Source: a bacterium (lineage in GTDB: Bacteria; Krumholzibacteriota; Krumholzibacteriia; LZORAL124-64-63). Taken from it: 33,025 nucleotides of DNA. Below are positions 23,167-24,456 of the stretch, in pieces (the first letter of the stretch is position 1; the number at the start of each line of letters is the position of its first letter). The notes under the pieces are model-generated. The model was not told the DNA's origin, did not search any database, and was given only the letters and a program-made list of their open reading frames with translations. Location of the stretch: NCBI GenBank assembly GCA_030654305.1, contig JAURXS010000245.1, positions 1 to 33,025 of the forward strand. Reading direction: 5' to 3'. Position numbers and translations under genes: made by a program.

Positions 23167-24456
23167 ATGACCGCGAACCGAGCCTTCAACGCCTTCGCCA
23201 TGGCCCAGTCCCAGTTCGACAAGATCGCCGACCTGATCGGGCTGGACGCCGGCACCCGCGCCTACCTGCGCACGCCGGCCCGCGAGCGGCGCTTCACGAT
23301 CCCGGTGCGCATGGACGACGGGCGGGTCGAGGTCTTCGAGGGGTTCCGCATCGTCCACAACGACGCGCGCGGCCCGGCCAAGGGCGGCGTGCGCTTCCAC
23401 CCCCACGAGACGATCGACACGGTGCGCGCCATCGCCATGTGGATGACCTGGAAGTGCGCCGTGGTCGACATCCCGCTGGGCGGCAGCGAGGGCGGCGTGG
23501 TCTGCGACCCGCACCACCTCGGCCCGCGCGAGCAGGAGGCGCTCTGCCGCGGCTGGGTCCGCCAGCTCGGCCGCGACCTGTCGCCCGAGACCGACGTGCC
23601 GGCCCCGGACGTGATGACCGGCCCGCAGCACATGCTCTGGATGCTCGACGAGTACGAGGCGATGCGCGGCGGCCGCCACCCGGGCCAGTTCACGGGCAAG
23701 CCGGTGGGCATGGGCGGCTCGCGCGGCCGGCTGCAGTCCACGGGCTACGGCCTGGTCTACGTGCTGCGCGAGGCGCTCAAGGAGCTGGGCGTGCGTCCCG
23801 ACGCCACCACGGCCAGCGTGCAGGGCTTCGGCAACGTGGCCCAGCACGCCATCGAGCTGTACGGGCGCATCGGCGGCCGCACCGTGGCCGTGTCCTGCTG
23901 GGACGAGGGCCGCGGCGAGGCCGCCACCTACCGCCGCGACGGGGGCGTCGACCTGGCCGAGCTGCGCGGCATGACCGACCGCTACGGCGGCATCGACCGC
24001 GCGCGCGCCGAGGCCGCGGGCTACGCCGCGCTGCCGGGCGAGGCCTGGCTGGAGCAGGACGTCGACATCCTGATGCCCTGCGCCCTGGAGAACCAGATCA
24101 CCGCCGACAACGTCGAGCGCGTGAAGCCGCGCGTCCGCCTCGTCCTGGAAGGCGCCAACGGCCCCACCTCGCCGGAGGCCGACGAGGCCCTGCGCGGCCG
24201 CGGCGTGACCGTCCTGCCGGACTTCCTGGCCAACGCCGGCGGCGTGACCTGCAGCTACTTCGAGCAGGTCCAGAGCAACATGAACTACTATTGGGAGATG
24301 GACGAGGTCCTGGGCAAGCTGGACCAGAAGATGACCGCCGCCTACATCGCGGTCGCCGACCTCGCGCGTCGCCAGGACCTGTCCCTGCGCGACGCCGCGT
24401 ACGTGCTGGCGATCAACCGGGTGGCGTCGGCCTGCCGCGACCGCGGCTGGCTGTGA
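23167..24456 (+). CDS. Glu/Leu/Phe/Val dehydrogenase family protein (about 430-aa GDH type) with the catalytic Lys of the GGxKGG motif replaced by Glu
   Basis: [36 protein letters not shown] (canonical is GG[GA]KGG), [23 protein letters not shown] and [12 protein letters not shown] are all GDH-like. Codon 108 is GAG (23488-23490). Confidence 0.9.
   Translation: [429 protein letters not shown]

Follow-up and report, generated by a model that had tools for sequence, protein, structure and literature searches.

In the mechanism described for the glutamate dehydrogenase (GDH) family a lysine primes the water molecule that attacks iminoglutarate, with an aspartate serving as the general base (PMC7326016). 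Accounts of the work of Tomita et al. (2010, 2011) in PMC9570180 and bioRxiv 10.1101/2025.10.31.685773 present GdhA of Thermus thermophilus as an inactive regulatory subunit of a GdhA-GdhB hetero-hexamer, defined by its hetero-oligomerization with a catalytic GDH paralogue and by allosteric activation by leucine. T. thermophilus is also the source of an alanine-dehydrogenase-like pseudoenzyme (ADLP), an NAD(H)-binding sensor whose catalytic lysine is variously replaced (bioRxiv 10.1101/2025.10.31.685773). Here we analyse a 33,025-nucleotide stretch of a bacterial contig of the Krumholzibacteriota (JAURXS010000245.1, assembly GCA_030654305.1), henceforth the window, which encodes a GDH homologue of the ELFV (Glu/Leu/Phe/Val dehydrogenase) type with glutamate at position 108 in place of the catalytic lysine. 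We call this protein the window protein and its orthologous family GDHx, and we put at roughly 55% the probability that it acts as a ligand-binding pseudo-GDH working with dikinase-like partners encoded alongside it, catalysis being left to a canonical GDH of the same cluster (GDH2).

Both ELFV domains are recognizable in the window protein (Pfam PF02812, E = 2.2e-49, residues 37-164; PF00208, E = 6.6e-66, residues 183-427), and it aligns over its full length with the solved hexameric GDHs of the Pyrococcus/Thermococcus/Thermotoga type (1gtm, 1euz and 1b26; E = 1e-105 to 1e-110). The alignment with the P. furiosus enzyme (1gtm, 371 bits) is gapless around residue 108, and phmmer places the segment 'plggseggvv' opposite 'pygggkggii' in comparisons with 1gtm, 1bvu and 1euz with zero gaps. 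Because the alignments to solved GDHs run without gaps through the glycine-rich turn, Glu108 can be assigned to the position of the catalytic Lys, which is K125 in Clostridium symbiosum numbering; the same offset of 17 maps K72, K96, D148 and S363 of the window protein to K89, K113, D165 and S380. An earlier note on this DNA, made from the sequence alone, had read the turn as GGSEGG with a GAG codon at position 108, had assigned that column to the catalytic Lys and had pointed to GGGKGG at the equivalent place in the downstream gdhA gene. Translation of the reading frame, the alignments with characterized GDHs and a BLASTP pairing of GGSEGG with GGGKGG bear out each of these points, and the further hallmarks that it listed (GPAKGG, WK, PAPD, GFGNVA and ANAGGV) are all present. 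Its description of the protein as a paralogue of the downstream gdhA does not stand in the sense of a recent duplication, as the two are only 32% identical (BLASTP) and belong to different GDH subfamilies.

The window protein thus departs from the GG[GSA]KGG turn at the PROSITE PS00074 position, and retains the general-base Asp (D148) and the carboxylate-binding lysines K72 and K96. Its best NCBIfam model, GdhA_Arch, scores 423.9 bits against an equivalog cut-off of 750, and 118 of its 120 nearest database clusters have Lys at position 108. We considered whether the catalytic Lys had merely been relocated, which the earlier note had named as an observation that would speak against its interpretation. 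There is no sign of this: all eight lysines of the protein stand at positions that are also Lys in Lys-containing relatives, with the exception of the variable K320, and a relocated catalytic Lys was ruled out on these grounds. Under the sequence-based definition of PMC10211241, pseudoenzymes are recognized by the absence of the conserved catalytic motif of their active relatives, together with maintained selection and no migrated catalytic residue. The window protein lacks the motif, its ratio of nonsynonymous to synonymous substitution rates (dN/dS) is 0.20, it has no lineage-specific Lys, and 144 of 163 strongly conserved sites (see below) are retained.

The observed codon is a single nucleotide change away from one for Lys (AAG to GAG) and could in principle stem from a sequencing error or mark a gene that was inactivated not long ago and is decaying, yet we regard either as most improbable. 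The identical GAG codon occurs in two more assemblies, which have a protein of about 97% identity and a matching gene order (locus L001, GCA_030658975.1, labelled Candidatus Latescibacteria; locus L006, JADJIV010000015.1). By the Nei-Gojobori method the dN/dS of the gene is 0.20 and 0.21 between the window and these two loci respectively, within the range of 0.08-0.42 displayed by the neighbouring genes, and its dN is the second-lowest of the cluster in the first comparison and the lowest in the second. The presence of GAG in three assemblies, the intact open reading frame and the dN/dS of 0.20 led us to reject both error and pseudogene. Moreover, a sister lineage with His at this position (72% identity) keeps the gene order, and within a second Lys-less clade identities reach as low as 67%. 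Strong evolutionary acceleration was likewise rejected, the increase being modest: the mean distance of the window lineage to other sequences is 0.32-0.33, compared with 0.30 for its Lys-containing sister and a median of 0.25. Among 152 sites with conservation of 98% or more, the window protein departs from the consensus at 5, the mean for Lys-containing sequences being 0.75.

Loss of Lys108 recurs within the GDHx family. The two Lys-less clusters among the nearest 120 are the window lineage itself (Glu) and P0038 (His, 72% identical), around which the genes stand in the same order all the way from those of lysine catabolism to GDH2. A metagenome scan added variants with Asn, Ser and Tyr, and in a search seeded with the protein of one such locus (L131) 81 of the 119 best clusters lacked the Lys. 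The merged non-redundant set comprises 387 sequences, 299 with Lys and 88 without, and in the latter position 108 is occupied by His (26), Asn (23), Ser (20), Tyr (12), Thr (4) or Glu (3). The survey for K-to-E paralogues and their neighbourhoods that the earlier note had proposed hence recovers Glu itself in just 3 of 387 proteins and other Lys-less residues in 85, along with linkage to the PPDK_N genes described below. Most Lys-less sequences form a large group (84 of the 387, with His, Asn, Ser, Tyr or Thr), whose 62-member core shows a minimum pairwise identity of 67% and one member of which is labelled Candidatus Aminicenantales. The window clade (3 Glu and 1 His) is separate from it, with P0053 as its sister, a sequence that combines Lys108 with Leu63 and is located between PPDK_A and PPDK_B genes; 25 of the 26 His108 sequences fall in the large clade and one in the sister lineage of the window.

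Neighbour-joining trees built without columns 63, 107, 108 and 148 place both Lys-less clades among Lys-containing orthologues from the PPDK_N module. In none of 60 bootstrap replicates did the two Lys-less groups come together unless at least 6 Lys-containing taxa were included (median 198), and a single origin of all Lys-less forms was ruled out on these trees, which indicate that the Lys was lost at least twice within the family. As a separate observation, 13 of about 146 diverse GDH representatives at 50% identity also lack the catalytic Lys, having M, C, R, H, V, S, F or Q instead (P0381, P0387, P0390, P0409, P0442, P0449, P0460, P0461, P0477, P0485, P0492, P0502 and P0507), and P0461 additionally lacks the Lys of GPxKGG. 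Lys-less GDH homologues may be much commoner than the literature suggests.

The residues that were kept and those that were released in the Lys-less proteins fall into different functional classes. There are 163 sites with conservation of 97% or more among the Lys-containing proteins, and at 144 of them conservation among the Lys-less proteins is still 90% or more. Retention of 98-100% is seen for K72, K96 and R188, which bind the carboxylate, for Ser363 of the pocket, for N331 and for the GFGNV dinucleotide fold, and the residues released are K108 (0% kept), D148, T192, T334, Y412, V86 and a few others, plus Gln63. The last of these is found in 288 of 299 Lys-containing and in 8 of 88 Lys-less proteins, being replaced by Val, Leu or Ile, and the general base D148 has become Glu in 41 of the 88 Lys-less proteins against 1 of the 299 with Lys. 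The window protein is the least altered Lys-less member, differing besides K108E and Q63V only by L89I, G139S, I175F and A191S, and its side-chain pocket of K72, A146, V360 and S363 (C. symbiosum K89, A163, V377 and S380) is as in Lys-containing orthologues. Catalytic residues that vary freely next to fixed binding residues and a fixed fold are what would be expected of a ligand-binding pseudoenzyme, and would not be expected of an enzyme with a newly acquired catalytic residue.

The genomic context provides further evidence. In the window three proteins with the PPDK_N domain flank the GDHx gene (Pfam), as the earlier note had stated. The analysis took in 169 loci centred on orthologues of GDHx and drawn from collections of genomes and metagenomes. 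Where each flank extends for 5 kb or more (73 loci), a gene resembling that of PPDK_B or PPDK_C, the two PPDK_N proteins encoded downstream in the window, adjoins the GDH orthologue in 62 (B-like in 45), and a metallophosphoesterase orthologue occurs in 42 of the 169, being annotated in L170-L173. A unit composed of a GDH, a 580-residue PPDK_N protein, a 1061-residue protein uniting PPDK_N with a nucleotidyltransferase, and the metallophosphoesterase recurs across many phyla, and its GDH usually has the Lys. The metagenome-assembled genomes (MAGs) in question are labelled Acidobacteriota, Ignavibacteriota, Zixibacteria, Eisenbacteria, Gemmatimonadota, Planctomycetota, Bacteroidota, Bacillota and, in one case (L083), Thermoplasmatota. 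As Lys108 is present in most GDHs of the module, association with the PPDK_N array is an old and conserved trait of the GDHx family rather than a peculiarity of its Lys-less members, and the setting assumed in the earlier note has to be revised accordingly. A literature search on the GDH/PPDK_N cluster found no description of it, and a PADLOC search for defence-system membership returned only weak matches, to the nucleotidyltransferase motif. In two Lys-containing loci (L088 and L089, the context of P0024) the GDH gene directly follows genes for a 2-oxoacid:ferredoxin oxidoreductase and an acetyl-CoA hydrolase/transferase, an order that accords with a role of the active enzymes in breaking glutamate down to succinyl-CoA by way of 2-oxoglutarate.

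A canonical GDH accompanies the Lys-less genes. Each of the nine Lys-less loci whose context could be read (the Glu and His lineages, L131, L136, L148 and L170-L173) has a gene for a 452-residue protein of the GdhA type that is 77-99% identical to GDH2 of the window; in the large clade this gene and the Lys-less one are divergent neighbours. Of 60 Lys-containing loci with enough flanking sequence, 7 have such a gene. One of the Lys-containing loci, L070, groups beside the large clade in the tree and has both the Lys and GDH2, which fits loss of the Lys in lineages that already had the canonical GDH. GDH2 is likely to be the catalytic GDH of the cluster.

Within the window the GDHx gene is part of a compact run on one strand, in which genes for a lysine-oxoglutarate-reductase-like protein, saccharopine dehydrogenase and piperideine-6-carboxylate dehydrogenase (NCBIfam pip_6_carb_DH, 773.6 bits, cut-off 730) are followed by those for PPDK_A, the window protein, PPDK_B and PPDK_C, with successive gaps of -4, 2, 34, 31, 25 and -8 nucleotides. 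The GDHx gene is hence separated by 31 nucleotides from PPDK_A and by 25 from PPDK_B, and the overlap of 8 nucleotides between PPDK_B and PPDK_C suggests translational coupling. The lysine-catabolism genes lie upstream only in the window clade and in L056, being found neither in the large Lys-less clade nor in most orthologous loci. In the window the saccharopine set is complete and co-transcribed with the GDH/PPDK_N genes; the pathway turns 2-oxoglutarate into glutamate, which a GDH would recycle. The coordinates of these features are as follows.

Table 1. Features of the window around the Lys-less GDH gene, with the evidence for each assignment (aa, amino acids).
Feature	Position	Strand	Basis
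Saccharopine-pathway lysine catabolism, upstream: lysine-oxoglutarate-reductase-like, saccharopine dehydrogenase, piperideine-6-carboxylate dehydrogenase	15895..20104	+	Pfam AlaDh_PNT, Sacchrp_dh; NCBIfam
PPDK_A, 998 aa, N-terminal receiver-like domain and PPDK_N ATP-grasp	20139..23135	+	Pfam Response_reg 1.5e-09, PPDK_N 4.3e-33
Window protein (GDHx), 429-aa ELFV glutamate-dehydrogenase homologue without the catalytic Lys (E108)	23167..24456	+	Pfam, phmmer, NCBIfam
Codon 63, Val; Gln in Lys-containing relatives; co-varies with loss of Lys108	23353..23355	+	
Codon 108, GAG (Glu), at the site of the invariant catalytic Lys	23488..23490	+	translation and alignment
PPDK_B, 580 aa, PPDK_N protein	24482..26224	+	Pfam PPDK_N 3.8e-32
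PPDK_C, 1061 aa, PPDK_N and C-terminal minimal nucleotidyltransferase	26217..29402	+	Pfam PPDK_N 3.6e-59, NTP_transf_2 1.1e-06
Metallophosphoesterase, convergent to the operon, member of the conserved module	29407..30384	-	Pfam Metallophos 3.2e-08
GDH2, canonical 452-aa NADP-type GdhA, GGGKGG	30498..31856	+	NCBIfam PRK09414 756.8 bits, cut-off 536

The ATP-grasp nucleotide-binding domain is present in all three partner proteins, each of which is matched by PPDK_N. An AlphaFold2 model of PPDK_B (predicted local distance difference test score, pLDDT, 86.9) retrieves with Foldseek as its best matches the ATP-grasp domains of rifampin phosphotransferase and pyruvate phosphate dikinase (PPDK; E = 1e-12 to 1e-7). 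The C-terminal parts of the partners gave no Pfam match, up to E = 1, to the phospho-His swivel domain (PEP-utilizers) or the phosphoenolpyruvate/pyruvate-binding TIM barrel, a permissive Pfam scan of the unassigned regions of the PPDK_N proteins yielded nothing useful, and the PPDK_B alignment, used as a profile against the PDB, recovered the ATP-grasp domain alone. The C-terminal segment of PPDK_B, of about 170 residues (approximately 400-580), has no significant match and contains the invariant motifs GFGRWGSSDP and SQGSHFFHN; its residues 481-505 can be aligned with the start of the His-swivel domain of rifampin phosphotransferase only non-significantly (score -2.1), and His515 could be a phospho-acceptor. 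PPDK_C has an intact nucleotidyltransferase motif, FGS...DIDLL (residues ~955-990), fused to the dikinase-type ATP-grasp domain, and no recognisable domain in its first ~340 residues. In the large Lys-less clade PPDK_B retains 114-116 of 126 invariant columns; therefore the partners are not decaying alongside the catalytic site of the GDH. The PPDK_B proteins of this clade (L170-L173) share changes at positions that are otherwise invariant (R93L/Q, L134M, H136E, G140S, G248D/E, D291N, L483G/A and W489F), and these could reflect co-evolution with a Lys-less GDH or plain shared ancestry. In the receiver-like domain of PPDK_A (20139-~20700) inspection by eye shows 'DLLLTM' at the place of the usual phospho-acceptor Asp, so that it may be a pseudo-receiver. 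Elsewhere in the window, between 6884 and 12580, the plus strand has open reading frames without Pfam match encoding 1099 (6884-10183), 367 (10180-11283) and 516 (11030-12580) amino acids, some of which may be spurious in this high-GC window.

We propose that the window protein keeps the hexameric GDH fold and the sites for glutamate/2-oxoglutarate and NAD(P)(H), and that replacement of the Lys, whose task is to activate water as the imine is formed or hydrolysed, would abolish or greatly reduce turnover, leaving the protein inactive, or nearly so, in oxidative deamination. With the canonical GdhA-type GDH of the cluster carrying catalysis, the ancestral activity would have become dispensable and been lost, and the protein would have been kept for a second role beside two or three PPDK_N proteins, one of them bearing a nucleotidyltransferase, and the metallophosphoesterase. 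This role would most likely be that of a subunit that binds metabolites, reporting on glutamate, 2-oxoglutarate or redox state, or that organizes a complex, presumably through physical contact with the PPDK_N proteins. A non-catalytic role is the simplest account because the gene is conserved, and always in an operon with dikinase-like proteins, despite loss of the Lys. The earlier note had offered a choice between a ligand-binding pseudoenzyme, acting as sensor or scaffold, and an enzyme of altered chemistry. The former fits the evolutionary evidence, because purifying selection, retained binding residues, a variable position 108, recurrent loss and constant linkage to PPDK_N genes and a canonical GDH all accord with it; the particular chemistry that the note floated for the latter, on 2-aminoadipate or phosphorylated amino acids, finds no support, the pocket being unchanged.

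Several points weigh against the pseudo-GDH proposal. In the window protein the general base D148 and all other active-site residues are intact, and it is possible that a carboxylate at position 108 acts as a base and sustains residual or altered catalysis. The K128H and K128R laboratory mutants of E. coli GDH, made by McPherson and colleagues in 1988, are reportedly strongly reduced in activity and are said to keep a low level of it. The trees that separate the Lys-less groups are of the neighbour-joining kind only, the association with GDH2 (naive Fisher p ~1e-4) represents only two independent loss events and is overstated by that p value, and the PPDK_N partners through which a sensor or scaffold role would be exercised are uncharacterized. 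One alternative is that the protein is still an enzyme, with Glu108 as the base of a weak GDH or with a Lys-independent chemistry such as the NAD(P)H-dependent conversion of 2-oxoglutarate to 2-hydroxyglutarate. The intact D148, K72, K96, R188, N331, S363 and dinucleotide fold would suit such an enzyme, and we note that the frequent combination of His108 and Glu148 in the large clade resembles the His/acid pair of 2-hydroxyacid dehydrogenases. We nonetheless think it unlikely, as residue 108 varies among close relatives (Glu and His in one clade; His, Asn, Ser, Tyr and Thr in the other), which is unexpected for a new catalytic role, and Asn and Ser are poor acid/base catalysts. A switch of substrate, to a product of lysine catabolism (2-aminoadipate, lysine or saccharopine) or to an amino acid bearing a phosphoryl or adenylyl group, is suggested by the operon shared with saccharopine-pathway genes and ATP-grasp proteins; it appears very improbable in view of a pocket (K72, A146, V360 and S363) identical to that of Lys-containing orthologues and of the restricted distribution of the lysine genes, and another substrate would not remove the need for the catalytic Lys.

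The constant company of GDH2 admits another explanation, in which the window protein is a regulatory partner of that enzyme, binding to it or co-assembling with it and modulating it in response to effectors as Thermus GdhA does with GdhB, and the PPDK_N genes are a separate matter. The occurrence of GDH2 at every Lys-less locus examined, divergently adjacent in the large clade, and the Thermus precedent of an inactive GDH subunit regulating an active one speak for this. Against it, an identity of 32% across subfamilies makes a mixed hexamer less plausible than in the Thermus pair, and the linkage to PPDK_B/PPDK_C genes is both far more general (62 of 73 loci) than that to GDH2 (7 of 60) and kept in every Lys-less locus. 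We accordingly consider this explanation improbable, and prefer the reading of a pseudo-GDH that belongs with its dikinase-like neighbours.

If that reading is extended to the module as a whole, the GDH/PPDK_N/phosphoesterase unit might be an undescribed sensing or regulatory system, in which the GDH fold would serve as receptor, sensing glutamate, 2-oxoglutarate and NAD(P)H, and would govern the ATP-dependent transfer of phosphoryl or nucleotidyl groups that its partners carry out, the signal running from receptor to transferases, with the Lys-less forms as receptors that have dispensed with catalysis altogether. We offer this only tentatively and would not be surprised to see it fail; were it true, the Lys-less forms would show that sensing is the selected function of the module. 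The unit ties GDH to dikinase-like ATP-grasp proteins in a widespread, unstudied operon of many phyla and of an archaeal MAG, and its Lys-less variants are natural separation-of-function mutants for the non-catalytic role of the GDH. These variants make up no fewer than 88 protein clusters, of Latescibacteria-like, Aminicenantales-like and further uncultured bacteria, and the source names that we checked were 'glutamate dehydrogenase (NAD(P)+)', 'Glu/Leu/Phe/Val dehydrogenase' or none. Metabolic reconstructions that count them as active GDHs are probably wrong. For the evolution of pseudoenzymes the family provides a case of two independent losses, after which the identity of the residue drifts and the binding residues stay fixed, with a canonical enzyme nearby in every examined locus.

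In comparison with the canonical hexameric GDHs (1gtm, 1euz and 1b26) the window protein has all binding residues in common and differs in the replacements of Lys by Glu and of Gln63 by Val. The affected position is the same as in the E. coli K128 mutants, whereas the substitutions of the Lys-less GDHx proteins are natural, long-lived and variable in identity. With ADLP they share the condition of an amino-acid dehydrogenase homologue in which the catalytic Lys has been replaced by differing residues across a clade. ADLP itself retains NAD(H) binding and is a cofactor-sensing regulator of an enzyme encoded nearby, and it is distinguished from the window protein by its AlaDH/PNT rather than ELFV fold and by its partner, a CoA transferase. 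Thermus GdhA is closer, being likewise a non-catalytic partner with the GDH fold, encoded near an active GDH and drawn from the same broad subfamily of about 420 residues, if the predicted inactivity of the window protein is granted. The two are of independent lineage, and orthology fails on the scores, the window protein matching 1gtm with 371 bits, Thermus GdhB (3aoe_A) with 322 and GdhA (3aoe_E) with 227. The active GDH near the window protein is moreover of another subfamily, and the surrounding operon of PPDK_N, nucleotidyltransferase and phosphoesterase genes is not described for Thermus. Thermus GdhA appears to be the one system in which a catalytically dead GDH had previously been described. 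The window protein represents a separate origin, and is, as far as we can find, the first in which the Lys itself has been replaced, with at least two losses in one orthologous family and in the setting of a dikinase-like operon.

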